From an uncultured delta proteobacterium (GTDB lineage Bacteria; Desulfobacterota; Binatia; UBA9968): a stretch of DNA of 64,000 bases. Below, piece by piece: positions 1-44,855 of the stretch. The notes under the pieces are model-generated. The model searched no databases. It had not been told where the DNA came from and saw only the letters and a list, made by a program, of their open reading frames with translations. The translations under genes were made by a program, and so were the position numbers. Location: NCBI GenBank assembly GCA_963804165.1, contig CAWDPO010000038.1:22079-86078 (forward strand), read 5' to 3'. Numbering within the stretch: the stretch's first letter is position 1; every line of letters begins with the position of its first letter.

Positions 1-865
1 GTGCCTTTGAGAATCTTGTCGACGTAATAGGCGACACGCCGGTAGCATCTGCGCAAGGTCCGCTCCGTAGGACATCAGCCCACCGGCCTCTAGAGCTGTT
101 GTTTCGTCGTACAACGAGGCAACCGGCTCTTTAATGCAAAGGTCGTAATCCGTTTTCTGTTAGCACGAAGCACGCTTCCCGCGAGGGGCACGTAGAGCCC
201 ATCCGGGTGATCCTTGTTTATGGCAGCGAATACCCTGTCAAAATCCTCCACAGCGCGTACCTCCCAATTCCGAAGAGTCAGCCCCAGCGCACGCGCTGCG
301 GGAGGGAGATCCTCTTTGACTTCGCGCGAAGCGCTCGGATTGGCCGGATTATGCAGAATCGCGACGCGGGCAAGTTTGGGAATGGCCTCTTTGAGTATCT
401 CCAGTCGCTTCCCGCCCAACTCACTGTTAAGAGTTGTAAGGCCGGTAACGTTGCCTCCCGGACGGGCAAGGCTCACAACGAATCCTGCCTTGACCGGGTC
501 GAGCCCAGTGCCGGTCATAACGATGGGAATCGTCTTGGTCGCATTCTTTGCCGCACGGATCGGTGTGGTTCCGCCTGCTACCAGGATGAGTTCCACCTTG
601 AGACCCACCAACTCGGCCGCAAGCGCGGGGTAACGATCCGACTTCCCCTCCGTATGTCGGTACTCAATGATGACGTTCTGTCCTTCTATGTAACCAAGCT
701 CGCGCAGCGCCTTTCGAATTCCTTCCGCGCGCGGCGAGTCAGTAGCCGTGTCGGTCCCGATAGATACCCAATTCGCGGCACTTTCCCCGATTGCTGCGCT
801 TCGGCGGAAACCCAGAGCGCAGAGAGCGCGGCGCAAAGAGTAAGGACCGTGTTTTTTTTCTTCAT
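1..865 (-). CDS. ABC transporter substrate-binding protein (ABC_sub_bind/COG2984-like), array copy 1; runs off window edge, frameshifted
   Basis: ATG at 865 (MKKKNTVLTLCAAL signal peptide); family motifs [38 protein letters not shown]; frame changes near 760 and 110. Confidence 0.85.
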
Positions 866-905
866 CTCTGTTCTCTATCTCGATTCACTTGATGCTCGCA
901 CCTTC

Positions 906-1881
906 TCACTTGATCACCTTCTGCGCGCGGGCGAGAATTTGTGGCGAAATCGTGACGCCGATTTGTTTTGGCGGTCTTGAGATTGATAACGAGTTCGAAC
1001 TTCATCGCTTGCTCTACGGGAAGCTCAGCCGGTTTGGCGCCTTTGAGAATCTTATCGACGTAAAGCGCGGCGCGGTGAAATCTGTCGGCGTCGTTGGCCG
1101 CGTACGAGATCAGTCCCCCTTCCTCAACGAAGTTGCCCTGTTCAACCATCAATGGCACCCGTTTCTGAATCGCAAAATCAGCGATCCTTTTTATATGCTG
1201 ATTGAGCACGACGTTGGTCACCGAGATGAGCGCATTCATCCGTTCCTTGTCGGCGGCGTGGAGCAATCCCTCGATATCAGGCTTCGGACGGTGCGCTTGG
1301 AGCGAGGTAAGCTTTAATTTAAACGCGCCGGCGGCAGCTTCATAATTCTGAAAAGCGTTTCCTGCGCCGAGAGAGGTGGGACTCGCCCATATCACTCCCA
1401 CGCGCGATATCTTCGGTACAGCTTCCTTTAGAAGTTCGAGCCGCTTTCCGCTGAGATCTCGGGTGAGACTAACAACTCCGGTTAGATTTCCGCCTGGACG
1501 CGCCAGGCTTTCGACGAGTCCGATGGCAACCGGATCCTGATTGGTCATCATGACGATAGGAATTGTTTTGGTGGCGTGCTGAGCGGCCCGAATGGCCGTC
1601 GTACTTGAAACGATTAGAACATCGACTTTGCTCTCTAAAAGCTCGGCGACCAAGCTAGGCATTCGGTCCGTGTTCCCCTGAGCGTAACGGTGGACTAATT
1701 CGATATTTTTACCTTCGACATAACCGCGCTCGCGCAAGCCTTCTCGGAGTAACTCCAAGCCACGTTCAGCCGTGACCATGAAGCCTATCCGCGGGATCTT
1801 CGCTGGTTGCTGTGCGTCGGCGTGTGAGCAAAGTGCAATGAGCAGAACGCCAAGCGCAAGAGCAAAATTCTTTTGGATCAT
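906..1881 (-). CDS. ABC substrate-binding protein, array copy 2 (frameshift near C-terminus)
   Basis: Signal peptide ending ADA-QQP; [11 protein letters not shown]; KILKGAKPAELPVEQ; family C-terminus AQKVIK* in a shifted frame, stop at 906-908. Confidence 0.88.
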
Positions 1882-1928
1882 CGTTCTCTCCTCAACGCCT
1901 TACACCCCTAACCATTCGCGTCTCACGC

Positions 1929-2919
1929 CTATCGAATGACTTTGTCTGCTCTCGCCAGCACATTCGAGCGAAATCATGAGACCTGATCCGCTTTGCGGTT
2001 TTCAGATTGATGATCAGCTCGAACTTTGTTGGTTGCTCCACTGGTAGATCAGCAGGCTTCGCACCCTTTAGAATCTTGTCCACATACACGACCGCGCGTC
2101 GGTATTGATCAGCATCATTCGCTCCATAAAACATGAGACAACCCGTCTCTACATACACACTTCCCTCGCACATTGAGGGCAGTCTGTTCTGTATGGCAAG
2201 ATCGCCGATGCGCTTTGAGTGACGATTGAGCGCACCAGCGCTAACTGTAATGAGCGCGCTCACGCCCCCCTTAGTCGCAGCTTGGACTGCTCCCTCGAAA
2301 TCAAGGCTCGGGCTGCGCACCTCTAGGGATTGAAGCGGTATCTTCAGTGTACGCGCCGCAGCCTCGTATTCTTTAAAAGAAATGGCCGCCGCTGGTGCGT
2401 CCGCAACCCAAAGGACTCCAACGCGTGATAGCCGCGGAACCGCCTCCTTGAATAATTCCAAACGTTTCCCGCTTAGGTCTCGGCCAAGTGTGGTGAGCCC
2501 GGTGATATTTCCGCCCGGGCGCGCCAAACTATCGACGATCCCAGTCGCGACTGGATCCACACTTGCCACCATGACAATGGGAATCGTCTTGGTCGCCTGC
2601 TTGGCTGCGCGAATCCCCGGTAAGACTTGAACGACAAGCACATCGACGTTTAATTGCACGAGTTCGGCCACCAGACTTGGCGCTTGGTCCAGTTTTCCCT
2701 CAAGATACCGGTACTCAATGACGAAGTTCTTTCCCTCAACATAACCCAGATCTCGCAGTCCTTGCCGGAATGCCTCCGGAACGGATGGAATCAGTAGCTC
2801 GGTCGGTCGGCGATATATACCCGATCCGAGAGACTTTCTTCGACTGCTGGGTCGCCACGGAGGGAGAAGGCGCAAAGAGCATGGCCAAAAGTACGAAACA
2901 AAAGATTTCTCTCACGCAT
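1929..2919 (-). CDS. ABC substrate-binding protein, array copy 3 (frameshifted at both ends)
   Basis: GAGGAGG RBS before ATG 2919; core ORF 1892..2875 carries family motifs; ADKVIR* ends at 1929. Confidence 0.85.
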
Positions 2920-2940
2920 TAGAGTTCCTCCTCGTTATCG

Positions 2941-2969
2941 CTGACGACTGATAACTGACACTGAATCTG
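2941..2969. repeat. Short tandem repeat, CTGACNA/CTGATAA family
   Basis: CTGACGA CTGATAA CTGACA CTGAAT CTG between SBP copies 4 and 3. Confidence 0.75.
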
Positions 2970-4028
2970 TCATCTGATAACTTTATCCGCTCGCGCCAGC
3001 ACATTCGGTGGAATCGTCAGGCCGATCTGTTTGGCGGTTATGAGGTTGATGACAAATTCAAACTTCGTCGGCTGTTCTACGGGAAGGTCCGCGGGCTTAG
3101 TGCCTTTGAGAATCTTATCGACGTAGTAAGCGGACCGGCGATGCATATCGGGAAGGCTCGGAGCATAAACCATGAGGCCACCTTCCTCGACGTAAAACCT
3201 CCAAGGATATATGGCTGGCAGCCGGTACTTGTGTGCCAGGGCGATGATCCTTTGCCGGGATCTCTCAAGCACAGATGGATCCGAGAAGACGAGAAGGGCC
3301 TTAGGACGGGCCTTGCCCATGGCTGAGAATGCGGTCTCAATTTCCTGTGGACTTCGTACCTTCCAGGCTTGCAGTTGAACTCCTAGCGATTTGCCTGCCG
3401 CTTGTGCGTCTCTCCACCGATTTGTTGCTTCTGGAAAGTCTGGATTCTGGAGGACAGCTACCTGCCCGAGTCCGGGAACAACTTCTTTGAGTAACTCAAG
3501 TCTCTTTCCATCGAGCGCCGCGGAAAGAAGGCTCAGTCCAGTAATGTTCGCGCCAGGCTGGGCGAGACTAGCGACGAAGCCCGCCGTCACTGGATCAGCT
3601 CCAGTCGCCGCCATGACGATCGGGATAGTGGTCGTTGCCTCTTTCGCTGCCTGGACCATCGGACCGCCGTTGGCAACGATCACGTCGACCCGCAGCCAAA
3701 CGAGATCCGCCGCCAGTTCGCGCAAGCTCTGCGGTTTCTCTCCGGTCCAGCGACGCTCGAAGACGACGTTTTGGCCTTCTATCCATCCCAGGTCGTGCAA
3801 GCCTTGCCGGAAAGCCTCGAAGTTTTCCTTGCTGAGCGGATCAGTCGGAGATCCTCCAGTTAATCGCCCAACTCTGTAGACTCTTGCTGCCTTCTGTGCC
3901 AGAGCAGAACTGCAAAGCGCAAGGAGCGCGGCGCAAACCGTAAAAGCAAACACAATTTTCCTCACGAGTTTTCTCTGTTTCTTTTTCTGCCCACTGCTCT
4001 TTGCCCGCTGTTCTTTGCTGACGTTCAT
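2970..4028 (-). CDS. ABC substrate-binding protein, array copy 4 (intact)
   Basis: 352-aa ORF with signal peptide and conserved C-terminus [35 protein letters not shown]; alternative GTG start at 3965. Confidence 0.92.
   Translation of the reverse strand: MNVSKEQRAKSSGQKKKQRKLVRKIVFAFTVCAALLALCSSALAQKAARVYRVGRLTGGSPTDPLSKENFEAFRQGLHDLGWIEGQNVVFERRWTGEKPQSLRELAADLVWLRVDVIVANGGPMVQAAKEATTTIPIVMAATGADPVTAGFVASLAQPGANITGLSLLSAALDGKRLELLKEVVPGLGQVAVLQNPDFPEATNRWRDAQAAGKSLGVQLQAWKVRSPQEIETAFSAMGKARPKALLVFSDPSVLERSRQRIIALAHKYRLPAIYPWRFYVEEGGLMVYAPSLPDMHRRSAYYVDKILKGTKPADLPVEQPTKFEFVINLITAKQIGLTIPPNVLARADKVIR
3988..4020. repeat. Heptamer tandem repeat, TGCYCNN family
   Basis: TGCCCAC TGCTCTT TGCCCGC TGTTCTT TGCTG at the copy 5/4 junction. 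Confidence 0.75.
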
Positions 4029-5058
4029 CTGATTATCCGATCCGCTCTCGCCAACACATTCGGTGGTATCGTCAGCCCGATCTGCTTCGCGGCTTTTAGG
4101 TTGACGATGAATTCAAATTTCGTCGGTTGCTCGGCGGGAATGTCGCCGGGCTTGGTGCCTTTGAGGATTTTATCGACATACGTGGCGGCGCGGCGGTCCA
4201 AGTCGGTCAGGTTGACGCCATAGGATATAAGCCCACCAGCTTCCACGTCGAGTCGATTGCGGTAAATGACAGGCAGCCGGTTCTTTAGCCGCGAGTTCCA
4301 ATAGCTGTGTTCGATTAGGATTTAGAATGATTCCCGGAGCGGCATAGACGGGCGCGTCAGCGCGCTCTTTGGTAGCGGCTCGGAATGCACGCTCAATGTC
4401 CTTGGGTCCGTAGGGCATCCAGCACTTGAAGCTTTACCCCTAGCGCTCGTCGCGCGTTCGATCTCTTTTAACGCTTGGTGTTGCCAGGCGTGGTTGATCC
4501 CCCGAACACGGCCAGGCGAAAGAACTTCGGAACGATTTCTTTGAGCAGCTCCAGTTGTTTTCCGCTTAGCTCCGGCGCAACGCGGGAAAGTCCCGTGATA
4601 TTCCCGCCTGGGCGCGCCAGGCTGGCGACGAAACCGTTTCAACGGGATCGGAATCCTGCGTCATAACGACTGGAATCGTATTGAAGCTTGCTTCGCTTGG
4701 CGGAACGCGTCGCGCCTGCGCCCGCCGTGACGATGACATCAACCTTCAGACGCACCAGATTCGCAGCAGCGGCGCGATCTTGTTTTCCTTCGTAACGAAA
4801 CTCGATGACAATGTTTTTCCCGTCCATCATAGCCGAGCTCTCGCAGACCCTGCCGGAATGCCTCGGCGCGGAGCTTTGCAGGGTGACTAGAGAGCTATCG
4901 TTCAAGTATCCTATTCGCGGGACTTTCCTTGGCTGCTGCGCCCCAACGGGAAAGCAAAGCGTAAAGAGCACGGTGCTAAGCGCAAGACCAAAGAATTGTC
5001 TTCTCATGAATCTACTTCTGTGTTCTTGCAACTCCCTGCTCCTTGCCCTTTGCTCCAT
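4025..5058 (-). CDS. ABC substrate-binding protein, array copy 5 (several frameshifts; error or pseudogene)
   Basis: Fragments 4639..5058 (signal peptide, QQPRKVPRIG), 4170..4418 and 4025..4246 (family C-terminus). Confidence 0.8.
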
Positions 5059-5064
5059 GCTATT
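5037..5064. repeat. Heptamer tandem repeat, TGCYCNN family
   Basis: TGCTCCT TGCCCTT TGCTCCA TGCTATT at the copy 6/5 junction. Confidence 0.75.
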
Positions 5065-6101
5065 TGATCACCTTATCCGCCCGCGCCAGCACATTCGGTG
5101 GTATCGTGAGACCGATTTGTTTCGCGGTTTTCAGGTTGATCACGAGTTCGAACTTGGCCGATTGCTCGACTGGAATCTCGGCCGGCTTCGTGCCCTTAAG
5201 AATCTTGTCGACATCCACGCAGCGCGCCTGTAACTCTCAGCATCGTTGGACGAGTAAGAAATGAGCCCGCCAGGTTCTATCCAAAAACTCGACTCATACA
5301 TTGAAGGCAGGCGGTGCTTTATGGAAAGCTGAGCAATTTCCTTTCGGTGGCGATCTAACATGTTATTGCCAACCGTAATCAGAGCGCGCACGCGGCCTTT
5401 GACAGCGGATTGAAATGCACCGTGCAGATCGGGGCTTGGCCCTCGCACTTCTAAGGATTGCAGTTGAAGCTTTAATGCGATCGGCCGCAGCCTGGTACTC
5501 TTTAAAACTAAGCTTGGGTCCTTCTGCACCTGCATCCCACAGGACACCAACGCGAGAAATTCCTGGAATGATCTCTGTAACCAATTCTAACCGCTTACCG
5601 CTTAGTTCTCGGTTGAGCCTGCTAATCCCTGGTAAGGTTTCCACCTGGGCGGGCCAAGCTATCGACAAGGCCAGTCGCAACCGGATCCTGGTTGGTAACC
5701 ATAACAATGGGAATCGTCTTGGTAGCCTGCTTCGCTGCGCGGATTGCCTGCGGATCTGGAGATACAAGGAGATCGACCCTGAGTTGTATAAGATCGGCTA
5801 CAAGGCTTGGGATACGGTCGCGCTTTCCTTCAGCGTAGCGAAACTCAATCAGGATGGTTTTTCCGTCGACATAGCCGAGATCTTTCAGCCCTTGAAGAAA
5901 CGCCTCAACGTTACGCCCTGGAATAGAGGGCTCGCCAACCACCCTCACGTATCCTATCCGCGGGATTTTCCCCGGCTGTTGCGCCTGGGCGAACGAACCA
6001 GTTGTCAGGAGAACCGTTGCCAGTATCCACAAGAGAATTCGCCATGGGTTTTCTCCGATGTCTTTGCTGACAACTGACCACGGTCGACTGACAACTGTCA
6101 T
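5060..6101 (-). CDS. ABC substrate-binding protein, array copy 6 (frameshifted)
   Basis: Fragments 5622..6101, 5363..5767, 5140..5550 join into one family member; ADKVIK* ends at 5060. Confidence 0.82.
6067..6100. repeat. Heptamer tandem repeat, CTGACNA family
   Basis: CTGACAA CTGACCA CGGTCGA CTGACAA CTGTCA at the copy 7/6 junction. Confidence 0.78.
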
Positions 6102-7096
6102 CGAATCACCTTATCTGCCCGCACCAGCACATTCGGCGGAATCGTCAGGCCGATCTGTTTCGCCGTCTTGAGGTTAATCACTAACTCGAACTTCGTCGGC
6201 TGCTCGACGGGTATGTCAGCGGGTTTTGTGCCTTTGAGAATCTTATCCATGAGAGTGGCAGCGCGCCGGAACATATCGGTATAGTTCGGCCCGTACGATA
6301 TAAGACCGCCAGCTTCTACAAAAGCGCGATTTTCGAATATCGCCGGCAACCGATTTTTCGCTACAAAATCTAGAATCTGCTTCTGATAAGAATTGAGGAC
6401 TGGATCCATTAACGCGAGAAAACCATCAGGTCGATCTTTAGACACCACGCCAAAAATCACTTCGAGCTCATTAGGGTCTTTCACCCCTCGATCTTGCAAC
6501 GTTATGCCCAACGGTCCTGCGACGTCTTGGGTTGCTTTCGCTTCGAGCGCCATGCCGGCATTGCCCTTATTCCAAACCATGGCCACCCTCGAGAGCTTGG
6601 GAAAGATTTCTTTTAGCAGCTCTAGCCGCTTGGGCCATAGGTCCGAAGCGAGGACGGAGATGCCCGTGATATTACCGCCCGGGTGCGCGAGACTAGCGAC
6701 AACGCCCATTCCAATCGGATCGCTAGTGCTGAAGAAAACGATAGGAATCGTTTTAGTCACTTCTCTAAGAGCGAAGATAGCGGGCGTACCCGCTGTGAAA
6801 ATCGCGTCCACCTTTAGCAGGACCAGTTCCCTTGCGAGTTCAGGAAGGCGCTCTGCCTTTCCCTCTGCAAAACGATACTCAATAAGAATATTTTTCCCCT
6901 CGACGTAGCGGAGTTCGCGAAGCCCCTGAATGAATGCATCGACGTTGGCGTTGGGAGCCGCACCGAGGTATAAAACACCAATCCGTGGCGTCGTCGCTTG
7001 TTTCTGCGCGTGGGCCGGATATACCGAAGCCAGAATAAGTGTGGCCAAGATGAATAGTGTGGAAGTGGTTTTTTTCATGGATTTTTCTCCTTCCAT
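6098..7096 (-). CDS. ABC substrate-binding protein, array copy 7 (intact)
   Basis: 332-aa ORF; likely start ATG 7078 after GAAGGAG; all family motifs present. Confidence 0.92.
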   Translation of the reverse strand: MEGEKSMKKTTSTLFILATLILASVYPAHAQKQATTPRIGVLYLGAAPNANVDAFIQGLRELRYVEGKNILIEYRFAEGKAERLPELARELVLLKVDAIFTAGTPAIFALREVTKTIPIVFFSTSDPIGMGVVASLAHPGGNITGISVLASDLWPKRLELLKEIFPKLSRVAMVWNKGNAGMALEAKATQDVAGPLGITLQDRGVKDPNELEVIFGVVSKDRPDGFLALMDPVLNSYQKQILDFVAKNRLPAIFENRAFVEAGGLISYGPNYTDMFRRAATLMDKILKGTKPADIPVEQPTKFELVINLKTAKQIGLTIPPNVLVRADKVIR

Positions 7097-7126
7097 TACA
7101 TGACGCCTCGTACGCCGTGCAGGGTT

Positions 7127-8101
7127 TTACTTGATTACCTTCTGCGCCCGCGCCAGAACTTGCGGCGGGATAGTCACGCCGAGTTGCTTCGCGGTTTGTA
7201 AATTGATCGCCAGCTCAACGCTGTCGACGGTTTCGATCTTTAACTCCTTCGGCGGCGTGCCGCTTAGCACTCGCTGCACGTACTTGGCGGAAATCCGACC
7301 GATCTCAAAATAATTCTGACCGTAGCTCGCCAGTCCGCCTTTGGCGACCAGGCTTTGATCCTGCAACATGGTCGGCAACTTTTTCGCCTTGGCGGTGTCG
7401 ATGATCAGCTGTGCCTGGCTGACAACCGTGGCATCCGCGAGATAAAAGAACGCGTCGGCCTCCTTGCTTTTGATTTCCTGCAGCGCTTTGCGCAGCTCGT
7501 CGACCGAGTTCACATGACGCTCGATGAGCTTGAGCCCCAGCCGTTTCGCTTCTTGCCGCGCCAATGCGGCGCCGTCCGCGGCGACTTGATTTTTCGGATC
7601 GTAAATGGTCAGTACTCGACCGACTTTTGGCAATATCTCTTTGAGAATCTCCAAACGCTTGGCCGTGAGGTCCTTCACCGGATAATGAACCCCCGTCAGC
7701 CTGCCGCCGGGCGTCGCGAAGTCGTTCACCAATCCGAAGGTCACTGGATTGCTGCCAATGCAGAATACAATCGGCGTATGCACCGTCGCTGCCTTCGCCG
7801 CGGCGATTACGGTGCTCGTCATTACGTAGAGCAGGTTGACTTTTTCCCGCTCGAAGTCTCGCGCCGCTTCTTCAGCTATTTTCAGATCGCCCTTAGTGTC
7901 GCGAATGGCAAGCGAGATTTGCTTTCCTTCTTGCAGGCCGAGTTCCTTCAGGCCGTGACGCAGCCCCTCAACGATATCGTATAAGGGCCCTCCAGGGAGG
8001 ATGACGCCGATACGTGGCGGCTTTGGCTGTTGTGCCTGTGCGGGTGCGGCGAGCGCAACGAGCAACGTGCTCAGCGCAAGGCAAAAAAAGTTTTTAAACA
8101 T
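7127..8101 (-). CDS. ABC substrate-binding protein, array copy 8 (intact, most divergent)
   Basis: 324-aa ORF, signal peptide AQA-QQP, PGGRLTG, INLQTAKQLGVTIPPQVLARAQKVIK. Confidence 0.9.
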   Translation of the reverse strand: MFKNFFCLALSTLLVALAAPAQAQQPKPPRIGVILPGGPLYDIVEGLRHGLKELGLQEGKQISLAIRDTKGDLKIAEEAARDFEREKVNLLYVMTSTVIAAAKAATVHTPIVFCIGSNPVTFGLVNDFATPGGRLTGVHYPVKDLTAKRLEILKEILPKVGRVLTIYDPKNQVAADGAALARQEAKRLGLKLIERHVNSVDELRKALQEIKSKEADAFFYLADATVVSQAQLIIDTAKAKKLPTMLQDQSLVAKGGLASYGQNYFEIGRISAKYVQRVLSGTPPKELKIETVDSVELAINLQTAKQLGVTIPPQVLARAQKVIK

Positions 8102-8286
8102 GGTTCCCCCGATCCAGCATCAATCCGTGCTGGTTATTTATGGCCATCTGACTGGAATCTCGCACCCGGCGCGTTGCTTGCGCAAGGGTTATACCAGATT
8201 TGAACGACGTCGTGGGGACGAACTAAGTTAGCGAAAGTGCGGAGAACTATAATGCGAGGAATGATCGGCGGCGGCGTGCCGGCGGG

Positions 8287-8323
8287 AGCAGGAGTATCAA
8301 GCTTGATACAGCAGGAGTATCAA
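8287..8323. promoter_or_regulatory. Candidate operator: perfect 16-bp palindrome overlapping a 14-bp direct repeat
   Basis: GTATCAAGCTTGATAC (8294-8309); AGCAGGAGTATCAA at 8287 and 8310; lies between divergent genes. Confidence 0.45.
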
Positions 8324-8420
8324 ATTTGCGGCACCACAGAGAGCGCGCGAGTTTTCAGCGAATCCTTGCAGGGGCACTACCTTCTACGTAGAGTTGGGCC
8401 TTTGACAGGGAGGCAAGACA

Positions 8421-9482
8421 GTGAATCGAAACTGGCTCGTGACGGGGTTTTTCTTCGCACTGCTGCTGCTCATTCTATACGGCGCCTTTTTGGTCCTCAC
8501 TCCGTTTCTCAGGGCGATCACCTGGGCGCTGATTCTCGCCATTCTCTTTTATCCGTTGTACGCGTGGCTGCTGCGATTGTTACGCGGGCGCGCGACGCTG
8601 GCTGCGCTTTTGGTCATTGTGATCATCACGACTTTAGTCATCGTGCCCGGCATTCAGCTCGCGTGGTTTCTGTCCGACGAGACGGTGTCGCTGGTCCAAA
8701 CGGTTCGCGCGCTCCTGGATGAGGAAGGCAAGCAACAATGGCTGGCGCAGCCGTGGGTCCAGCACGTGCTGAGCTGGTGGAACATGGTGACGTTCCGATT
8801 GGTGGACTTTAAGATCAACTGGAAAGATCTACTGATTCAAGGGGCACAGTCATCATCGACGGTGATCGTCGCGCAAGTCAAAGGGATCGCCCAGAACGTG
8901 CTACTTTTCGCGGTCAACTTTTTCCTCGCCCTTTTCACGCTGTTTTTCTTTTTGCGCGATGGCGCGGCTTTCGTCGGCTGGGCGCAACGGCTGCTGCCGA
9001 TGGACCGTGAAGATCAAGCGCGGCTGTTTAGAAACATCGAGGACGCGGTCACCGCGGTGGTGCACGGAGCGTTGGTCGTGGCGATGATCCAGGGCTTGCT
9101 CGCGGGATTGGGCTACTGGGTTTTGGGCGTGCCTTTTTCGGTCCTGTGGGGCGTGATCACGGCCTTTGCCGCGCTGGTGCCGTTCGGCGGTACGACGCTG
9201 GTCACGATTCCCGTGTCGCTTTATCTATTTTTCCAAGGGGAGAACGCCAGAGGGATTTTCATGCTCATCTGGGGCCTTGGGGTGGTCGTGACCATCGATA
9301 ACGTTTTGAAGCCGTTGTTCATCGGTACTCGAATCAAACTTCCCATGTTGGTACTCTTCTTTGGCATTCTCGGCGGTCTGAGTGTATTTGGTGCGCTAGG
9401 CCTGATCCTTGGACCGGTGCTGTTCGCGCTGCTTGCCGTATTACTCGATCTCTACGCGGAAGAGTACGGCGCCAACGAGTAG
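8421..9482 (+). CDS. AI-2E family (PerM/UPF0118) transporter
   Basis: 353-aa polytopic membrane protein; FFFLRDG, IDNVLKP, GGLSVFGALGLILGP motifs; GGGAGG RBS. Confidence 0.9.
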   Translation: MNRNWLVTGFFFALLLLILYGAFLVLTPFLRAITWALILAILFYPLYAWLLRLLRGRATLAALLVIVIITTLVIVPGIQLAWFLSDETVSLVQTVRALLDEEGKQQWLAQPWVQHVLSWWNMVTFRLVDFKINWKDLLIQGAQSSSTVIVAQVKGIAQNVLLFAVNFFLALFTLFFFLRDGAAFVGWAQRLLPMDREDQARLFRNIEDAVTAVVHGALVVAMIQGLLAGLGYWVLGVPFSVLWGVITAFAALVPFGGTTLVTIPVSLYLFFQGENARGIFMLIWGLGVVVTIDNVLKPLFIGTRIKLPMLVLFFGILGGLSVFGALGLILGPVLFALLAVLLDLYAEEYGANE

Positions 9483-9556
9483 GACGAGCCAACGGTGATT
9501 GCGTATAAATCCAGTCTCGGTTATGAAACCGTTAGAAGACGTTTTCGGGAGGGATC

Positions 9557-10054
9557 ATGGCTGACGATCTGCAAATCAAACGCGAAATTGTCCTTGAAGC
9601 GGACGCTGAGACCTTGGAGCGCATGCGCAAGGAAGGGCACGCCCGCGGCTTCACGGTTTTTTGCGATGAAGGAGAGCGCATCGGCGGTGATAACACCGCG
9701 CCGCCGCCATTGGCGTATTTTGGTTTGTCGGTGGGGTTTTGACTGCTGACGCAAATTTCCCGGTACGGGGAAATGCTCAAGACTCATATCGATAAAGCCA
9801 AGGTCTACGTCACGGCGCGTTTCAAGAACGAGGGCTCAGTGTTACGTGAAACCGTGCAGGCAGAAGGTCTGGGAGTCGAAACGCGCTGTGAAATCACATC
9901 CAGCGAGTCGCCGGAAAAAGTCGCCAAGGTTGTACGAAACGCCGAGGCGGGTTGCTATGTGATCCAGACGATCCGCAAGCCGACAGAAGTGAAGAGCGAA
10001 TATTCACTGAACGGCGCGGCGTTCGATCCGGCCGCTTTTGCAAAGAAAACATAG
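9557..10054 (+). CDS. OsmC/Ohr-family protein, probable selenoprotein (UGA at 9740-9742 = Sec62), 165 aa
   Basis: ORFs 9557..9742 and 9773..10054 share one frame separated only by TGA plus LLTQISRYGE; DEG..GG.NTAPPP motif; UGA sits at the expected first OsmC Cys position; second Cys in AEAGCYV; hairpin just downstream. Confidence 0.85.
9751..9776 (+). promoter_or_regulatory. Bacterial SECIS-like hairpin
   Basis: ATTTCCC-GGTACG-GGGAAAT 7-bp stem with a G-initiated loop starting 19 nt after the UGA, plus closing GC pairs. Confidence 0.7.
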
Positions 10055-10090
10055 GCGGGTGCGATCGACTTTTAGGAAGGAGATACGGTA

Positions 10091-10336
10091 ATGGCGAAGG
10101 AAACAGAATTTTTCGATATTCGGTACAAGGAAGGCTCTTTGGATCCCAAGACCGCGGAGTTCATCAAATTCGCGGTCAATCTCGCCATCGGCCACGAGCA
10201 CGGCGCGAAGCTCCATTTAGACCGGGCGCGCAAATGTGGCGCCAGCGAAGACGAAGTGACGGAAGCCGTGGTTTACGCCGTACGGCCGGTGGCGGCTAAA
10301 GTGCGCAATTTTGCCAAGGCGATCATCGCGAAATAG
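10091..10336 (+). CDS. Small AhpD/carboxymuconolactone decarboxylase (CMD)-family protein
   Basis: GSLDPKTAEFIKFAV...LHLDRARKCGASEDEVTEAV pattern; AAGGAG RBS; CxxC replaced by HEHG. Confidence 0.8.
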   Translation: MAKETEFFDIRYKEGSLDPKTAEFIKFAVNLAIGHEHGAKLHLDRARKCGASEDEVTEAVVYAVRPVAAKVRNFAKAIIAK

Positions 10337-10371
10337 CGTGGTAAAGGCGCAACGAAAGTAAAACAGACGCC

Positions 10372-10546
10372 TCACCACGAAGGTCACGAAGAGCACGAAG
10401 GGTTCGGATGGTTCACCGTGGAGACGCTGAGGACGCGGAGAGTTTGAAGATTCATAACTTCTGTACACTGTGTGTCGCTGCGGTGAAAACTGATTTTGAT
10501 GTATGCAGGCTCCTAACCTTCGTGTCCTTCGTGCGCTTCGTGGTGA
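10372..10546. repeat. Nested palindromic intergenic elements (REP/MITE-like)
   Basis: Outer arms TCACCACGAAGGTCACGAAGAGCACGAAGG / CCTTCGTGTCCTTCGTGCGCTTCGTGGTGA; inner arms 10412-10442 / 10458-10487. Confidence 0.8.
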
Positions 10547-10578
10547 ATAATATTTAGGACGAATCGAGTAGAGCAATT

Positions 10579-11433
10579 ATGAACCCGTGGACGATCGACG
10601 TTAACGAAGAAAATTTCGAAGCGGAAGTGTTGGAGCGCTCAACTCAAGTTCCAGTTCTGGTGGATTTCTGGGCTGAGTGGTGCGGGCCGTGCAAAGTTCT
10701 GGGGCCCGTGCTCGAGAAACTCGCCGGCGAATACGCCGGCGAATTCATTATTGCAAAGGTCAATGTCGATGAAAACCAGGGCTTGGCGGGCGCCTTCGGC
10801 ATCCAAGGCATCCCGGCGGTGAAACTGTTCAAGGACGGTGAGCTGGCGTCGGAATTTACCGGCGCGTTGCCGGAGCCGATGCTGCGCGAGTTCTTGTCAA
10901 AGTTTTTACCGACGGCGGCGGATAAACAGGTGCAGGAAGCTCAGGCTCTCGAAAATGACGGCAAGACCGATGAAGCGAAAGCGCTTTACCAGGAGATTCT
11001 CGCCGCCGATCCAAACCACGTCAAAGCGCTGCTCGGGCTCGGACGTCTGGCGCTGAACGAAGGCGACGCCGCTGCCGCAATGGAGTATCTTGACAAAATA
11101 CCGATCGTCGCCGACGAGCGTAAAGAAGCCGATCGGCTGATCGCGCGGCTCAGTCTCCAGAGCGGCGCGGCCGAAAATGAAGCGGCGTTGCGCGAAAAGG
11201 TAAAAGCGGAACCGAACAATATTGCGGCGCGATTCGAGTTGGCCCAGGCGCTGGCGGCCACGGAAAAATACGATGAGGCGCTAAAAGAGTTTCTCACTGT
11301 CGTCAAGACCGATCGCGCGTTCCAAGACGACGGCGCGCGCAAAGCGATGATTCAGATCTTCGAAGTGCTCGGTTCTGAGGATCCTCTGACCGACAAATAT
11401 CGCTCGGAGCTTGCGGCGGCGCTGTTTCGTTAA
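10579..11433 (+). CDS. Thioredoxin-TPR protein (YbbN/CnoX-like)
   Basis: VDFWAEWCGPCK thioredoxin motif, helical TPR C-terminus ending YRSELAAALF. Confidence 0.92.
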   Translation: MNPWTIDVNEENFEAEVLERSTQVPVLVDFWAEWCGPCKVLGPVLEKLAGEYAGEFIIAKVNVDENQGLAGAFGIQGIPAVKLFKDGELASEFTGALPEPMLREFLSKFLPTAADKQVQEAQALENDGKTDEAKALYQEILAADPNHVKALLGLGRLALNEGDAAAAMEYLDKIPIVADERKEADRLIARLSLQSGAAENEAALREKVKAEPNNIAARFELAQALAATEKYDEALKEFLTVVKTDRAFQDDGARKAMIQIFEVLGSEDPLTDKYRSELAAALFR

Positions 11434-11450
11434 CCGGATCGGAGAGTATG

Positions 11451-11533
11451 CACCGCAGAGGCGCTGAGGACGCAGAGTAAAGAGTTTTGACTAGAATTAC
11501 TCCGAACTCTGCGAACTCCGTACCTCTGCGGTG
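11451..11533. repeat. Palindromic intergenic element (CACCGCAGAG...CTCTGCGGTG)
   Basis: Arms CACCGCAGAGGCGCTGAGGACGCAGAG / CTCTGCGAACTCCGTACCTCTGCGGTG; same family as the inner element at 10412. Confidence 0.8.
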
Positions 11534-11555
11534 GGAGCCTGGCGCAGAAGGCAGA

Positions 11556-12023
11556 ATGAGTATGATCACTTTGGCACAATCGAATCGCATCATCGAGGCG
11601 ATCTTCGCCCGCGGTCGCGAATTGAGCTGTCGTCCGCTCAGCGTCATCGTCGTCGAGCCCGGAGCAAAAGTTAAAGCATTTCAGAAAGAAGACGACTCGG
11701 CCATGATGCGATTCGAGATGGCCTACGGTAAAGCGTACGCCGCGCTGGCCCTGGGACGTTCGTCATCACTCGTGCGCATGCGCACGGAAGAGCGACCGCT
11801 GTTTATGCAGTATTTGATCCGTGCCTCCGACGACCAGATTTTTCCCGAAGGCGGCGGCATGCTGATCCGGGACCAGCACGGCGAGTTGCTCGGCGCCGTC
11901 GGGGTCACCGGCGATACCCAGGAACGTGACGAGGAGCTTGCCGCTCACGGCATCCGCGCCGCCGGACTCAAGACCGACGAAGACTGCGCGAATCTGGGAA
12001 CGAAAGTGCGGTTGGAGAATTAA
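11556..12023 (+). CDS. GlcG/HbpS family heme-binding protein
   Basis: AYGKAYAALA, GGGMLIRD..G.LLGAVGVTG, DEELAAHGI motifs. Confidence 0.88.
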   Translation: MSMITLAQSNRIIEAIFARGRELSCRPLSVIVVEPGAKVKAFQKEDDSAMMRFEMAYGKAYAALALGRSSSLVRMRTEERPLFMQYLIRASDDQIFPEGGGMLIRDQHGELLGAVGVTGDTQERDEELAAHGIRAAGLKTDEDCANLGTKVRLEN

Positions 12024-12035
12024 AACTTCAAACCC

Positions 12036-12103
12036 GGGGGATTGGAGTAGTGGAGTAATGCTTCCGGCCAATACTCCAGCATTCCAGTACTCCAGCACTC
12101 CAT
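12036..12103. repeat. Inverted octamer arrays (GGAGTART / AGYACTCC) between convergent genes
   Basis: GGGGGATT GGAGTAGT GGAGTAAT ... AATACTCC AGCATTCC AGTACTCC AGCACTCC. Confidence 0.75.
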
Positions 12104-12109
12104 TCTCTC

Positions 12110-13820
12110 TCACGCAATCCATTCCGACACCGGCGCTTTGGCTTCGTGCAGCGGCTGGCATACGATGTCGACCAGACTCGGTCCGCCGTGCGCGAGCGCT
12201 TCATTCAATGCCTTACCCAATTCGCTCGGCTCGGTGACGCGCCAGCTTTTGACGCCGAACGCCGCAGCGACGGCGGCGTGATCCGTAACGGCGAAATCCA
12301 CGGCGAAATAGCGCTGGCCGTAACCTGAGCTTTTGTCCCGCTTTGATCCAGCCGTAGCTCGCGTTCGAAATCACAATAAAAGTAATCGGCAGCGCGATAG
12401 CGCGCCGCGGTCTCCAGCTCGCCGCAGGTAAAACCGAAACTGCCGTCGCCCATGACCGACACGCACTTGACTTCCGGCTGCGCGAAATGCGCGCCCATCG
12501 CCGCCGCCATCGAGTAACCGAGCGCGCCGTGAGCGCGGTTGGAGAATAACCCGCTGCCGGTGCCGCGCACTTGATAATAAGCGGAAAAATACGGGCAGGG
12601 CGTGCCGGCGTCGGCGACCACGATGGCGTCGGCATCGAGGCGTGCGTGCAAGCTCCGCGACCACGCGCTCCGGTTTGATCGGCGGCTCGGTCGGACTCGG
12701 CGAGGGCTTGGAACTTGGCGAATTTCTGTTCTTTGGCGATTCCACTCGCGACGCGTCCAGCGGCCGGTGCGTGCCTGCCAGCGCTTCATTCAACATTCTC
12801 AGTCCGACCTTGGCATCGCCGATCAGCGGCACAGTCCACCGGATAATTGGCCCCGGGCACCGCCGGGTCGACGTCGAGATGAATTACTTTGATTCTTCCC
12901 CGGTACAGGATGGCGCCAGCGTTCGGTGGTTACGGAGCCGGCACGGCAGCCGATGAAGAAGACCACATCGGCCTGATCGACCATCGCGCGCGTTTCCGGC
13001 GTGCCGCCATTGGAGCCGACAACGCCGATCGCCAGCGGGTGGTCTTCGCCGATCGAACCTTTGCCGCTGATCGTCGTCGCCACCGATGCCGAGAGCCGCT
13101 CCGCGAGCTCGAGGAGCTCGCCCTCGGCCTCGGAAAGCATCACGCCCGCCGCCGCAGATGAAAACCGCGCTGGCGGCATCACGCAGCACGGCGGCGGCGC
13201 GCTCGACGAAATCACGCATCGGGCGCGACGCGTTCGGCCGGATAGCGGCCGAATCTCGCATCGCCCCAGATTTCGGATTTATTGACCGAACCGTTTTGCA
13301 CGTCGAAGGGCAGGGCGATATGCGCGGCGCCGGGCCGGCCGGTGGTGATTTGTTTGAACGCGGCGCGAAAAATGCGCGGCAGATCCTCGGCGCGGTCGAG
13401 CACCGCGTTCCACTTCGTTACCGGACGCATGAGCGCGCCTTGATCGAGCTCGGTGAGCGTGTAGCGGCCGCGCGCGGCGACGGAAATGTCGGAGTTGATG
13501 CAAAGCAGTGGTACTGAAGACTCGTTGGCTTCAGCAAGACCCGGCAGAATATAAGTCACGCCGCCGCCGCTCGGGCCTTCGCACACGCCGACCTTGCCGG
13601 AGACGCGCGCGTAGCCGTCCGCCATGTAAGCGGCCGAGCGCTCGTCGCGCGCGAGGATGTGGCGCATGCCGTGCGGCAGCCGCGCCAGCGCGTCGTAAAA
13701 CGGCAGGCTGGTATCGCCGCAAAGTCCGAAGAGGATCTCGACGCCGTGGGCTTTGAACATTTCCACCGCGGCTTCGGCGCCGGTGAGTGTCGAGAGTTTC
13801 GATTCAGCAGCTTCACTCAT
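12110..13820 (-). CDS. Thiamine-diphosphate-dependent enzyme (acetolactate synthase large-subunit-like), several frameshifts
   Basis: ARDERSAAYMADGYAR, GRPGAAHIALPFD and GDGSFG motifs across consecutive fragments. Confidence 0.85.
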
Positions 13821-13954
13821 GATTCTTTTCGGCCTCTCTGCCCGGGGTCGCAGCGACCAAACGACAATCGCCGCCGAGGGCTTCAGCAATTTTCTCGATC
13901 GTATTATGATGAAGGCGGTGAATACAATCTGATCGTTCGCTTCGATGGTCTTCT

Positions 13955-16923: not shown

Positions 16924-16961
16924 CGTTCAAATCGTTCAAGCCGTTCAAAACGTTCAAATCG
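16924..16961. repeat. 9-mer tandem repeat CGTTCAARN x4
   Basis: CGTTCAAAT CGTTCAAGC CGTTCAAAA CGTTCAAAT fills the spacer after putA. Confidence 0.85.
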
Positions 16962-43139: not shown

Positions 43140-44855
43140 GTGGCGACTTTGACAAGTAGCGGCAAACCCCGCATCGCAGTTTTTTCCGGTCCAACGGCAA
43201 CGATCCAAAACACCGAGCCGCTGGTGACCAGCAACAAGGCGCGCGAAAAATATGGCTTGCCGCCGCGAACGACCGCAGACGGTTCGCCGATGCGTTTCGA
43301 TGTTCTGCGCCCGCAGCGCTTGGCGGCACCGGTAACCGTTTACGTCGAACAATTTAGCGCGCACCCCTTGGAGCGCGATTTCGGCGAGCTTTACGCGCCC
43401 TCTGATGGTTATCTCGACGGCGCCGGTGTGTTTCACAAACAGCGCACGAGTCCGAACGATAAGCCGGTGTATGAAGTGACGTTGAAACCAGAAGACGGAC
43501 TTTATCCACTGCCGTACATGGCGCGACAAGCGAACGGGCAGGCCTGGGAGATGGACGGGACTGAAAAGAATGTGCCCGGCGAACGTTGCCGCGTGCCGTT
43601 TTTCCCCGACGGCTCGCGGCTCTTCGAAGAGATCGATCGCCTGGGAGTTTCAGACGAAGGCATTGGTTCTCTGCTCACGGCCAAGGCTGAATTCGATTTT
43701 TACCGAGCGCTGCCGTCAGGCGGTTACACCAAGGGGCGAAGCGCCGGCGAGCGAACCGATATCGGCGATGGCGATATTGCGCCGGAAAAGCGCGGCGTCG
43801 ATTTCTTTCCTTATCGTCCGGGTTACTTGCGCAAAGAGCCGCCGATGGCCGCGCTGGCGCGAGTGACCAACGTCGTTCAGCGGGCTCTCGGCAGCGGTAA
43901 ATACTTGGGTGCGATTTGGCTCGAAGGCAGCCCGTTTGTCGAAGAAACGACTTACTGGCTCAATCTTTTGATCGATACGATCGTGCCGATCGCCGGTAAT
44001 TCTTCTCAGCGACCGCACGGCGCCATCGCCAATGACGGCGATCGGAATATCGTCGATTCCGTCGATTACATTGCCTCGCGGATCTGGGCCGATGAAAGCG
44101 GCAAGGATTGCATCGGCGCCGTGGCCATCCTCGACGAACAAATTTTTACCTCACGCGATGTACAGAAAGCCGATGCGCGGCCGGGCGGCTACGTCGCCAC
44201 TGGGGGGCATGGCGGCATCATTGGACGCATAGGTCATCCTGGTGCGCCGCAGTTTTCTTTCAAGCCGGTCAAACGACATACGCACAATTCAACGGTGAAT
44301 TTGACGCGGTTGCCGCGTGAAGTTCAAGGTTCAAGGGTTCAAGGTTCAAAGGTCGGAACGGTTGCCGTCACGATCAAAGATTCGGACGGCAATTTACTTT
44401 CGACGGCTATTCCAAAAGTAACCATCGTCAAGCATGCGCGCTATTTGCCGGAAGATACCTCGGGAGAGGCGAGCAGCGAAGTCGACATCCTAGCGCGTAT
44501 GGAGAATAATCTTCGCAGCGCGCCGCTGGCAGGCTTCGTCGCCGAAGGATCGGCGCCGTTCGGCGCTATGAGCAATTCGGTCGATGCCGCGCTCAAACGC
44601 GCCACCTTCAGCGGTATTCCCATCGTTAAAGTCGGCCGCGGCAATGCTGGCGGATTTGTCGATCCGACCCGCGATCCACTGGCGATTGCGGGCAGCAATT
44701 TGACCGCCACCAAAGCGCGGTTGTTGCTGATGGCATGCTTGATGAAGCTGGGCTGTTTGCCGCCGGCTGCCGATCCGGCAAAGCCGACGGCCGCAGAAAC
44801 CGAAGCGACGAAAACGAAGCTGAAAGAGTATCAAGCGATTTTCGATACGCATTGA
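43140..44855 (+). CDS. Divergent asparaginase-domain protein
   Basis: IAVFSGPTATI (cf. TGGTI), WLEGSPFVEETTYWL (cf. HGTDTLEETAY.L), RDVQK, NLTATKARLLL. Confidence 0.7.
   Translation: MATLTSSGKPRIAVFSGPTATIQNTEPLVTSNKAREKYGLPPRTTADGSPMRFDVLRPQRLAAPVTVYVEQFSAHPLERDFGELYAPSDGYLDGAGVFHKQRTSPNDKPVYEVTLKPEDGLYPLPYMARQANGQAWEMDGTEKNVPGERCRVPFFPDGSRLFEEIDRLGVSDEGIGSLLTAKAEFDFYRALPSGGYTKGRSAGERTDIGDGDIAPEKRGVDFFPYRPGYLRKEPPMAALARVTNVVQRALGSGKYLGAIWLEGSPFVEETTYWLNLLIDTIVPIAGNSSQRPHGAIANDGDRNIVDSVDYIASRIWADESGKDCIGAVAILDEQIFTSRDVQKADARPGGYVATGGHGGIIGRIGHPGAPQFSFKPVKRHTHNSTVNLTRLPREVQGSRVQGSKVGTVAVTIKDSDGNLLSTAIPKVTIVKHARYLPEDTSGEASSEVDILARMENNLRSAPLAGFVAEGSAPFGAMSNSVDAALKRATFSGIPIVKVGRGNAGGFVDPTRDPLAIAGSNLTATKARLLLMACLMKLGCLPPAADPAKPTAAETEATKTKLKEYQAIFDTH

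Follow-up and report, generated by a model that had tools for sequence, protein, structure and literature searches.

What are short, degenerate heptanucleotide repeats doing between the genes of a tandem array? The question is raised by a 64,000-nt stretch of DNA (the window) from an uncultured delta proteobacterium of the Binatia (assembly GCA_963804165.1, contig CAWDPO010000038.1, positions 22,079 to 86,078). At positions 1-8101, on the minus strand, the window carries eight tandem genes for the PF04392 family 'ABC transporter substrate binding protein' (SBP), named in minus-strand order H, G, F, E, D, C, B and A, with A truncated by the window edge. The original prediction, made from the letters alone, noticed 7-nt repeats at the gene junctions and proposed that they are recombination, insertion or RNA-processing signals delimiting exchangeable gene cassettes. 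We find that the arrays are real and that they are tied to SBP genes in one bacterial lineage. The best explanation, to which we give a probability of roughly 0.45 as a whole statement, is that they are slippage-built heptanucleotide arrays in leaders and N-terminal codons, acting in cis on coupled translation.

Heptamer arrays at the SBP gene junctions

Each junction was shuffled 5000 times and its best lag-7 score was compared with those of the shuffles; repeats were also listed with Tandem Repeats Finder at a score of at least 30. Arrays with a period of 7 or 14 nt exceed chance at four of the seven junctions (p 0.009 to <0.0002). These four junctions and the weaker C/B one are as follows, with units written as they stand in the mRNA:

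6067..6100, minus strand: G/F array, CAGTNNN family; units begin at the TGA of gene G; lag-7 p=0.0006
5032..5062, minus strand: F/E array, GCARRGR family; begins in the TAG of gene F; lag-7 p=0.0008
3988..4018, minus strand: E/D array, GCARRGR family with a 14-nt double unit; Tandem Repeats Finder period 14, 88% matches
2941..2980, minus strand: D/C array, CAGTNNN family with 6- and 7-nt steps; p=0.009; absent from the Tandem Repeats Finder list
1893..1931, minus strand: C/B junction, weak periodicity at chance level, p=0.14; absent from the Tandem Repeats Finder list

Tandem Repeats Finder reports the G/F array at 6067-6097 (period 7, 4.4 copies, 70% matches) and the F/E array both at 5032-5061 (period 7, 4.3 copies, 73%) and at 5037-5066 (period 14, 81%). 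For the E/D junction the shuffles gave p=0.13 at lag 7, and when lag 7 or 14 was allowed none of the 5000 scored as high. No array was found at the H/G junction (7079-7126, p 0.24), which is kept in the related loci L001 and L003, or at the B/A junction (866-905, p 0.52). The coordinates and sequences noticed originally match ours; the genes lie on the minus strand, so the mRNA units are CAGTNNN and GCARRGR. Four of the repeats proposed there (G/F, F/E, E/D and D/C) stand beyond chance, but the 'TCACGCC-like' one at C/B does not; the first units at C/B are similar to a GGCGTGA family of other loci.

In the four significant arrays the periodic run opens at or just after the upstream stop codon, that of D/C within the last codons of D, which bears out the earlier observation that the repeats begin a few bases from this stop. 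The copies are imperfect (70-88% matches), and typically only 3-4 of the 7 columns are invariant. A score of at least 17/28 lag-7 matches is attained at only five places in the whole 64 kb, and SBP junctions account for two of these five as well as for three of the four places found at lag 14. A chance origin of the arrays was ruled out by the junction shuffles together with locus-wide block shuffles.

The arrays belong to one lineage and are tied to SBP genes

Relatives were collected by a single scan of genome contigs with protein G, which yielded 73 loci (given L numbers here); with the window they make a sample of 839,088 nt. SBP genes were mapped with a profile of the window's own proteins (247 complete C-termini, 156 SBP-to-SBP junctions), other genes are crude open reading frame (ORF) calls, and arrays were defined as lag-7 clusters with at least 19/28 matches. 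The closest relatives are titled Candidatus Binatia (85% identity) and a 'Deltaproteobacteria bacterium' (80%). The sample contains 141 lag-7 clusters, compared with 1-26 at the other lags of 4-12 and 0-3 in block shuffles.

Sources with a G+C content below 0.61 hold 140 arrays in 620 kb with 199 SBP genes, and these array-bearing loci are mostly titled Binatia or "deltaproteobacterium". The sources at or above 0.61, which are alpha- and betaproteobacteria and Rokubacteria, hold a single array in 219 kb (16 loci). Since the latter nevertheless contain 48 SBP genes, the arrays are a trait of the lineage and not of the protein family. One locus, L018, has 16 tandem SBP genes with compact overlapping junctions and 0 arrays. 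Binning errors may lie behind the taxon labels of short contigs, among them Udaeobacter and Pyrinomonadaceae. An assembly artefact was ruled out, as the arrays recur in metagenome-assembled genome records of many different series.

Within the low-G+C sources, an array lies within 90 nt past the stop of 69/190 SBP genes but only 4/258 other ORFs of at least 150 aa (odds ratio 36, p ~1e-24), and around the start of 61/174 SBP genes versus 9/249 other ORFs. Arrays number 1.65 per kb in SBP end zones, compared with 0.29 per kb in other non-ORF DNA; other ORFs have 0.03 per kb and the bodies of SBP genes 0.01. Within the same contigs, the ends of SBP genes carry them ~10-20 times as often as the ends of other genes. 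These ratios are provisional, because loci fetched by an SBP query under-sample non-SBP DNA. SBP gene ends are thus enriched over ordinary gene ends, as the original prediction anticipated, and the repeats are not equally frequent elsewhere. The 141 arrays are placed as follows:

SBP-to-SBP junction: 58/141
Before an SBP start with no SBP upstream: 30/141
After an SBP stop only: 20/141
In signal-peptide codons: 8/141
Elsewhere: 25/141

Some arrays of the last class form the first codons of a large membrane protein. An orthologous membrane protein of ~1000 aa opens with residues (SKIQNPKSKIQN) that come from a NAAAATC-type array in both L005 (13834-13879) and L047 (12464-12511), where it is cut by the locus end at 826 aa. 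Because these orthologues begin with such an array, translated arrays are not confined to SBP genes. As a probe for leader modules carried over to other protein families, the N-terminal 44 residues of an L004 SBP matched only that protein and its L004 paralogue (2 proteins among 3 candidates), an outcome that carries little weight.

This distribution bears on a neutral explanation, in which the lineage is prone to heptanucleotide slippage and the arrays, having no role, simply pile up in the least constrained places, the spacer and the signal-peptide region, and are multiplied by tandem duplication of SBP genes. We consider it somewhat unlikely. An odds ratio of 36 at SBP stops relative to other ORF stops, with a 5.7-fold excess over other non-ORF DNA, speaks against it, as does the presence of arrays before solitary SBP genes. 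It is favored by the report that heptamers are the commonest unit of long simple sequence repeats (SSRs) in prokaryotes, where they are laid to polymerase slippage (Mrazek 2007, as related in PMC4679880), and by the 8- and 9-nt arrays at unrelated genes of the same window. Further evidence on both sides is given below.

Anatomy of the arrays

The arrays have a characteristic position and strand. Fifty-six of 77 start no more than 5 nt past the SBP stop, and many of these arrays include the stop codon in their first unit. On the mRNA strand, junction arrays are rich in G and poor in C, with G exceeding C in 46/57. Their sequences are diverse, with 94 different consensus units in 179 arrays, and the largest unit groups are complementary to each other, upstream GATTTTN being matched by downstream NAAAATC, and upstream GCAAAGN by NCTTTGC in signal-peptide codons. 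In the fullest form the order is stop codon, 5′ array, Shine-Dalgarno (SD) sequence, ATG, ~15 codons and an inverted array that is translated, NAAAATC units giving a lysine-rich SKIQNPK-like stretch and NCTTTGC units a Leu/Ala/Cys-rich core.

Homologous junctions differ in the number of their units, for example between the window and L010 at GCARRGR junctions, and even the unit family is not constant between them. From these differences, and from the periods of 7 and 14 nt, we infer that the arrays arose by slippage.

Single units combine 3-4 invariant positions with 1-3 positions at which up to four alleles occur. Such a pattern could be read as a series of periodic mRNA sites, with one core per 7 nt, for an oligomeric RNA-binding regulator exerting global post-transcriptional control over the SBP family. 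Ring-shaped attenuation proteins such as HutP and TRAP bind triplet-plus-spacer sites of this general kind. CsrA, S1 and cold-shock proteins have been proposed as candidate binders of the TAACTGA repeats discussed below (PMC4679880). A consistent orientation on the mRNA strand, the location of the arrays directly 5′ of an SD sequence and start, and a specificity for one gene family, as a regulon would show, all agree with this proposal. We regard it as quite unlikely, since the many unrelated cores (CAG, AGGC, GTGAG, GATTTT, GCAAAG) would call for many regulators or for sequence-blind ones, column clustering is weak (mean z 0.32), and no candidate gene was seen beside the array.

Within the downstream arrays of several leaders lies a conserved insert of ~25 nt, a small palindrome whose translation is ...LSEVEG-like (L040 7503, L030 2195, L002 9857, L010 13415, L013 1046, L011 2803 and L014 2834). 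This suggests a second small repeat element nested in the leader arrays.

Stop/start overlaps and translation of the arrays

The eight SBP genes of the window are:

7127..8101, minus strand: gene H, PF04392 E 7.6e-60; intact, first in the array
6098..7078, minus strand: gene G, PF04392 E 1e-54; intact; 5′ identity 0.83-0.89
5060..6101, minus strand: gene F, frame broken near 5622 and beyond
4025..5007, minus strand: gene E, several frame breaks
2970..3965, minus strand: gene D, PF04392 E 4.5e-44; intact
1929..2919, minus strand: gene C, frame breaks near both ends
906..1881, minus strand: gene B, frame break near the 3′ end
1..865, minus strand: gene A, PF04392 E 1e-26, profile 17-198; broken and cut by the window edge

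Three of the eight genes (H, G and D) thus have an intact frame, and the other five (F, E, C, B and A) are broken. Frame breaks also divide a gene for a thiamine-pyrophosphate (TPP) enzyme at 12205-13889 (minus strand), whose C, M and N domains fall in three ORFs, so the breaks are not peculiar to the SBP array; they may be assembly indel errors or gene decay.

The starts that overlap or adjoin an upstream stop are:

6099..6101, minus strand: ATG of gene F, overlapping the TGA of G (ATGA); sole canonical in-frame start of F
5056..5058, minus strand: ATG of gene E, in frame, 1 nt past the TAG of F; a second in-frame ATG at 5005-5007
4026..4028, minus strand: ATG of gene D, overlapping the TGA of E (ATGA), in frame; alternative GTG start at 3963-3965
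2935..2973, minus strand: 12-codon ORF, from an ATGA at the stop of D (2973) through the D/C array

The in-frame ATGs predicted at 4028, 5058 and 6101 were confirmed by ORFs that open at them (2970..4028, 4639..5058 and 5622..6101). Each of these starts overlaps (6101 and 4028, ATGA) or abuts (5058) the stop of the preceding gene and opens a frame that continues into the next protein; reading from 6101 or 5058 leads without a break into the signal peptide and the mature SBP. Because ATG 6101 is the only canonical in-frame start of F, the G/F array is read as codons 2-12 of that gene; the ATG at 6045 (6043-6045), which stands behind a GGAG, is out of frame with it. The F orthologue of L003 likewise has an ATGA as its only canonical in-frame start, so its GATTTTN array must also be read as codons. 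At D/C, the 12-codon ORF ends 4 nt before a strong GAGGAGG (2927-2933) that precedes the ATG of gene C (2917-2919).

A frame bias is seen across the related loci. At junctions of at least 35 nt, 48/85 NTGA starts (ATG or GTG on the stop codon) share the frame of the SBP that follows, against an expectation of one third, which strengthens the earlier suggestion that the repeats could be translated. The frame is open in 30/48 cases when NTGA is in frame and in 7/37 when it is out of frame, and open coupled frames occur in 30/127 junctions of this length. The bias fits an origin from overlapping ATGA junctions like those still present in proteobacterial loci.

Translated heptamers also raise the possibility of a contingency switch. 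A heptamer does not fill a whole number of codons, so adding or losing a single unit in a translated array would put the SBP out of frame and could turn its expression on or off in part of a population. Arrays in and out of frame (48 and 37), unit-number differences between homologous junctions and the precedent of Haemophilus hmw1A, whose expression is controlled by heptamer repeat number (PMC12721329), are what such a switch would lead one to expect. Slippage should be slow in arrays this short (4-5 units) and imperfect, however; in many genes, E and D of the window among them, the array is followed by another in-frame start that has an SD of its own, and phase variation would be unusual for the nutrient-binding proteins of a free-living soil bacterium. 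We therefore hold a switch to be very improbable indeed.

Predicted RNA hairpins

Some arrays are predicted to form one arm of a long leader hairpin, the other arm lying in signal-peptide codons of the next gene. The folds computed for the window are:

5994..6103, minus strand: predicted G/F RNA hairpin, -55.5 kcal/mol, z -3.36, 2/200 shuffles as good
4951..5056, minus strand: predicted F/E RNA hairpin, -49.9 kcal/mol, z -2.93, 1/200 shuffles
3898..4022, minus strand: E/D fold of array against signal-peptide codons, -43.3 kcal/mol, z -0.68

In the G/F hairpin the array provides the 5′ arm (6088-6097), which faces an exact 10-nt complement in the signal-peptide codons of F (5999-6008; arm duplex z -4.1); an SD-like GGAG (6053-6056) and the out-of-frame ATG lie inside. 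In the F/E hairpin the array pairs with heptamer-periodic signal-peptide codons of E, and the ATG at 5005-5007 is apical. The array is thus predicted to act as a hairpin arm at G/F and F/E and not at E/D or D/C, and in predicted hairpins of the former type the ribosome-binding site is buried.

Among 180-nt 5′ modules of the sample, 12/185 have z<-3, compared with 1/185 internal controls, and 9/57 array junctions have a significant downstream pairing partner. The same layout (stop, 5′ arm, SD, ATG and a 3′ arm in N-terminal codons) is built from at least five unrelated arm sequences, and the fullest forms in related loci are predicted to reach -60 to -92 kcal/mol, with base pairing of the SD and the ATG close to the apex. 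A known RNA family was ruled out: Rfam 15 gave 0 matches at gathering score for the window and L001, L003, L004, L040 and L055.

A further hairpin, GGCTCCGCC...GGCGGATCAGCC, recurs in junctions of L005, L032 and L049.

A model of coupled translation and its weak points

These features can be joined in one account. Neighboring SBP genes would first have been joined by an overlapping stop/start (ATGA), as proteobacterial SBP arrays still are. Replication slippage by 7, 14 or 21 nt would then have expanded the least constrained stretch, from the coupled start to the hydrophobic core of the signal peptide. Expansion at this place would account for three features: arrays that abut the stop, a downstream frame that often reaches back to the ATGA, and heptamer-periodic signal-peptide codons.

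On a polycistronic mRNA, the arrays would set in cis how strongly each SBP gene is translated after its upstream neighbor. Where a complementary N-terminal array is present (G/F, F/E and perhaps E/D), a hairpin of 50-90 kcal/mol would bury the Shine-Dalgarno sequence and start, and a ribosome that reaches the end of the upstream gene would occupy the initial units of the 5′ arm, open the hairpin and free the start, that is, coupling by RNA unfolding. Arrays without a partner (D/C) may serve as unstructured, C-poor spacers for re-initiation, often with SD-like GGAG or GAGG units or a short coupled ORF. It is from this arrangement that we infer a tuning of downstream translation by the arrays.

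A single transcript for the SBP array fits a consensus scan in which sigma-70-like promoters and terminators were at or below chance and none lay in the junctions on the gene strand, with the proviso that this organism's own signals may depart from the consensus. On the same grounds, promoters or terminators within the junctions were dropped as a candidate.

Several observations weigh against coupled translation as the function of the arrays, at least as a general one. The minimum-energy fold at E/D is no better than its shuffles (z -0.68), and no hairpin was found at D/C (z +0.54) or at C/B, H/G and B/A. Hairpins are a minority among the 5′ modules and array junctions of the sample (12/185 and 9/57) and several window junctions lack structure (4/7), so one mechanism cannot explain every array, and the hairpin was ruled out as a general explanation. 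Of the structured modules, 19/24 fold better on the sense strand than on the antisense, but the same holds for 86/131 of the unstructured ones; this comparison is weak, as the structured set was picked on sense-strand energy and G+T richness biases it. Mismatches cluster by unit position only modestly (mean z 0.32, 108/156 above 0), and duplication of double units could produce this as well. Because the clustering is modest and the sense/antisense test biased, selection on the arrays is no more than suggested. The broken frames of F, E, C, B and A and of the TPP-enzyme gene mean that single-base errors could alter the frames read, and the under-sampling of non-SBP DNA noted above must be kept in mind. 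Finally, in 67 SBP pairs with at least 75% mature identity, the 150 nt before the signal-peptide cleavage site are on average 0.63-0.67 alike, versus 0.61 for random pairs; 5′ modules of close homologues are thus near the random baseline, which fits fast neutral turnover equally well.

The last point, the scarcity of hairpins and the degeneracy of the arrays (70-88% matches, 94 consensus units in 179 arrays) are what the neutral explanation would lead one to expect. Less easily accommodated by it are the rebuilding of one hairpin layout from unrelated arms, the frame bias (48/85), and a 35-nt array that is 100% identical between L003 and L040 while the adjoining gene end is only 81% identical and the downstream genes are unrelated.

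Coupled translation can also be put in a bolder form, which we consider unlikely as it stands. In Binatia-type soil bacteria the PF04392 genes (~200 in 620 kb) would each carry a modular heptamer leader, in which a 5′ arm beginning at the upstream stop is followed by the ribosome-binding site and often by an inverted 3′ arm whose translation supplies the charged or hydrophobic segment of the signal peptide. Such leaders would constitute a family-specific, fast-evolving layer of translational control that couples neighbors, is retuned by whole-unit slippage, is swapped at the conserved gene end and the cleavage-site codons, and supplies raw material for new signal peptides.

Rearrangements at the array regions

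The original prediction took the arrays to be recombination or insertion signals bounding exchangeable SBP gene cassettes, and breakpoints do coincide with arrays. Window positions 8300-6098 are colinear with L001 (85%, 2.2 kb), and the match stops exactly at the stop of G, beyond which L001 continues with other SBP genes. L003 retains an F orthologue after G, but with a junction array from another family and an unrelated signal peptide; homology to the window's F picks up again where the signal peptide is cleaved. The H/G junction, which has no array, is conserved across the window, L001 and L003. The identical array shared by L003 and L040 follows the 81%-identical gene end and precedes unrelated genes, and near-identical mature SBPs bear GATTTTN-hairpin, CAGT-type or other leaders. 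In four loci an SBP gene body has been deleted, and the array is fused to the last ~15 codons with one breakpoint in the array; the remnants lie at L005 9040-9168, L010 13415-13653, L013 1046-1192 and L065 ~1090-1230. As far as the alignments go, then, the array region is the place where gene order and leaders change.

Nothing, however, points to dedicated recombination signals, and we judge the cassette proposal very unlikely. The deletion joints show short letters shared between the array and conserved 'QIG' codons, that is, microhomology with no fixed site. One conserved imperfect-palindrome site per boundary was looked for and not found; the boundaries have direct repeats of 94 consensus units, and 3/7 window junctions have none. 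The recurring signal families proposed at first thus dissolve into dozens of unit sequences with no single recognizable site. Nor are the arrays junction-specific: 30/141 precede SBP genes with no SBP upstream and 25/141 lie elsewhere, 8- and 9-nt arrays occur at other window genes, and equally tandem SBP genes of other lineages, such as the 16 of L018, do without arrays. A search for co-occurring recombinase genes had been suggested as well; no recombinase, integrase or transposase was found in a Pfam scan of 50 window ORFs, which did not extend to small ORFs or the related loci.

A likely and simpler substrate is offered by the genes themselves. The last 150-220 nt of the SBP paralogs (window 906-7350) are 72-82% identical in DNA, both mutually and with paralogs of L001-L003, and outside these 3′ ends the paralogs have no DNA-level alignment. 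Homologous exchange between paralogs within the conserved ends would suffice to place apparent breakpoints at the stop codon. The divergence of 5′ modules between homologues was also considered as evidence of array-specific swapping and dropped, since it is equal with and without arrays; the region just turns over fast.

Comparison with known heptamer repeats

Tandem heptamers are familiar from the short tandemly repeated repetitive (STRR) sequences of cyanobacteria. Prokaryotic long SSRs have units of 5-11 nt, heptamers being commonest, and slippage has been proposed as their origin (Mrazek et al. 2007, as related in PMC4679880). Like both, the present arrays are tandem, have units of the 5-11-nt class and are sporadic across lineages; the surveys of long SSRs concern near-perfect runs with no reported association to a gene family or to stop codons, and the host here is not a cyanobacterium.

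TAACTGA direct repeats, in 2-6 copies, are described from marine Beggiatoaceae and some Cyanobacteria and Bacteroidetes, and their author proposes translational regulation and finds no pattern among the downstream genes (MacGregor 2015, PMC4679880). The arrays described here are similarly short intergenic heptamer runs (4-5 units) a few nucleotides before the next start. They differ in being degenerate, with dozens of consensus units in place of one exact unit, set mostly in the orientation with stops in all frames; CAGT-type arrays have the opposite, translatable orientation on the mRNA and are open in all frames; and the tie to one protein family is strong here but not reported for the TAACTGA system (PMC4679880). 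The TAACTGA unit itself is present once in the D/C array, on the plus strand, and the neighboring units differ.

A further parallel is Haemophilus influenzae hmw1A, in which (ATCTTTC)n forms the left arm of a long 5′-UTR hairpin that is cut by RNase III (PMC12721329). In both cases a heptamer array in a transcribed leader forms a hairpin arm before a gene for a secreted protein, although action in cis is only proposed here. The hmw1A array has many perfect copies in phase-variable number and a non-repeat, G-rich right arm, and belongs to a single locus of a host-adapted pathogen (PMC12721329), whereas here imperfect runs of 4-5 units recur at hundreds of loci and the right arm is an inverted array in coding sequence.

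Multicopy blocks of four or five heptanucleotides have been reported in Geobacter metallireducens, among them GGACCGG (49 copies) and MTYCTGA (15 sites), along with octanucleotides (PMC2700814). These too are short, degenerate, present in many copies per genome and taken as regulatory, and their unit number fits ours. The Geobacter elements have a fixed consensus per family, lie also inside genes CAGTNNN and GCARRGR match neither of the two consensus sequences; TCAG-type units, present here and in L006, L017, L019 and L048, come near the complement of MTYCTGA, as do the TCAGARG-type arrays of L006, L017 and L019.

Translational coupling by RNA unfolding is represented by phage f1 VII/IX, MS2 coat/lysis and E. 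coli rpmI-rplT (review PMC12548453). As in those systems, a structure at the downstream ribosome-binding site would lie within reach of the upstream ribosome, with ATGA overlaps; the stems there are ordinary and unique, whereas the predicted stems here are built from tandem heptamers, and their unfolding is a proposed mechanism.

A limited search of the open-access literature found no description of heptamer arrays in connection with Binatota/Binatia, SBPs or signal peptides. The present arrays are set apart from known heptamer repeats by being degenerate, in many families, started at the upstream stop, partly translated and bound to one SBP family of an uncultured lineage. Heptanucleotide blocks have been noted in cyanobacteria, Beggiatoaceae, Geobacter and Haemophilus, and a mechanism is known only for the hmw leader. 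With odds of ~36 to 1 for one gene family, a precise site and, in some cases, a predicted hairpin over the ribosome-binding site, a function for the present arrays can be tested with simple reporters. The arrays also hint at how 'orphan' binding-protein families of uncultured soil bacteria are expressed and diversified, and at signal peptides arising from simple repeats. If neutral, they would still be a clear case of lineage-specific slippage shaping gene starts, and a warning to gene callers on the choice of start codons in such genomes.

Genomic context and other arrays in the window

Within window positions 1-12000, no ABC permease or ATPase gene adjoins the eight SBP genes, which thus form an 'orphan' binding-protein array. 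The next gene beyond them encodes an AI-2E family transporter (8421-9482), and the remainder of the window is ordinary chromosome, with genes for CTP synthase, Kds and Lpt proteins, rpoN, SAM synthetase and others.

Short-period arrays were also observed at other places. An 8-nt array of 3.8 copies (12068-12102) lies between the convergent HbpS-like and TPP-enzyme genes. A 9-nt array at 16924-16961 (4.2 copies, 82% matches) fills the gap from the stop of a PutA-like gene (16922) to the ATG of an alpha/beta hydrolase gene (16962), and so it, too, starts at a stop codon. The cleanest heptamer array of the window (44322-44353, 3.9 copies, 90% matches) is inside an ORF (43140-44855), whose frame stays open, between the matches to the N- and C-terminal domains of asparaginase. 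At 10372-10546, just 5′ of a thioredoxin-TPR gene (ATG 10579), a long hairpin is predicted (-84.4 kcal/mol, z -4.56, 0/200 shuffles) whose arms are inverted 9-nt arrays of three units each; its build of array against inverted array resembles that of the SBP leaders, but with a period of 9 and at an unrelated gene.

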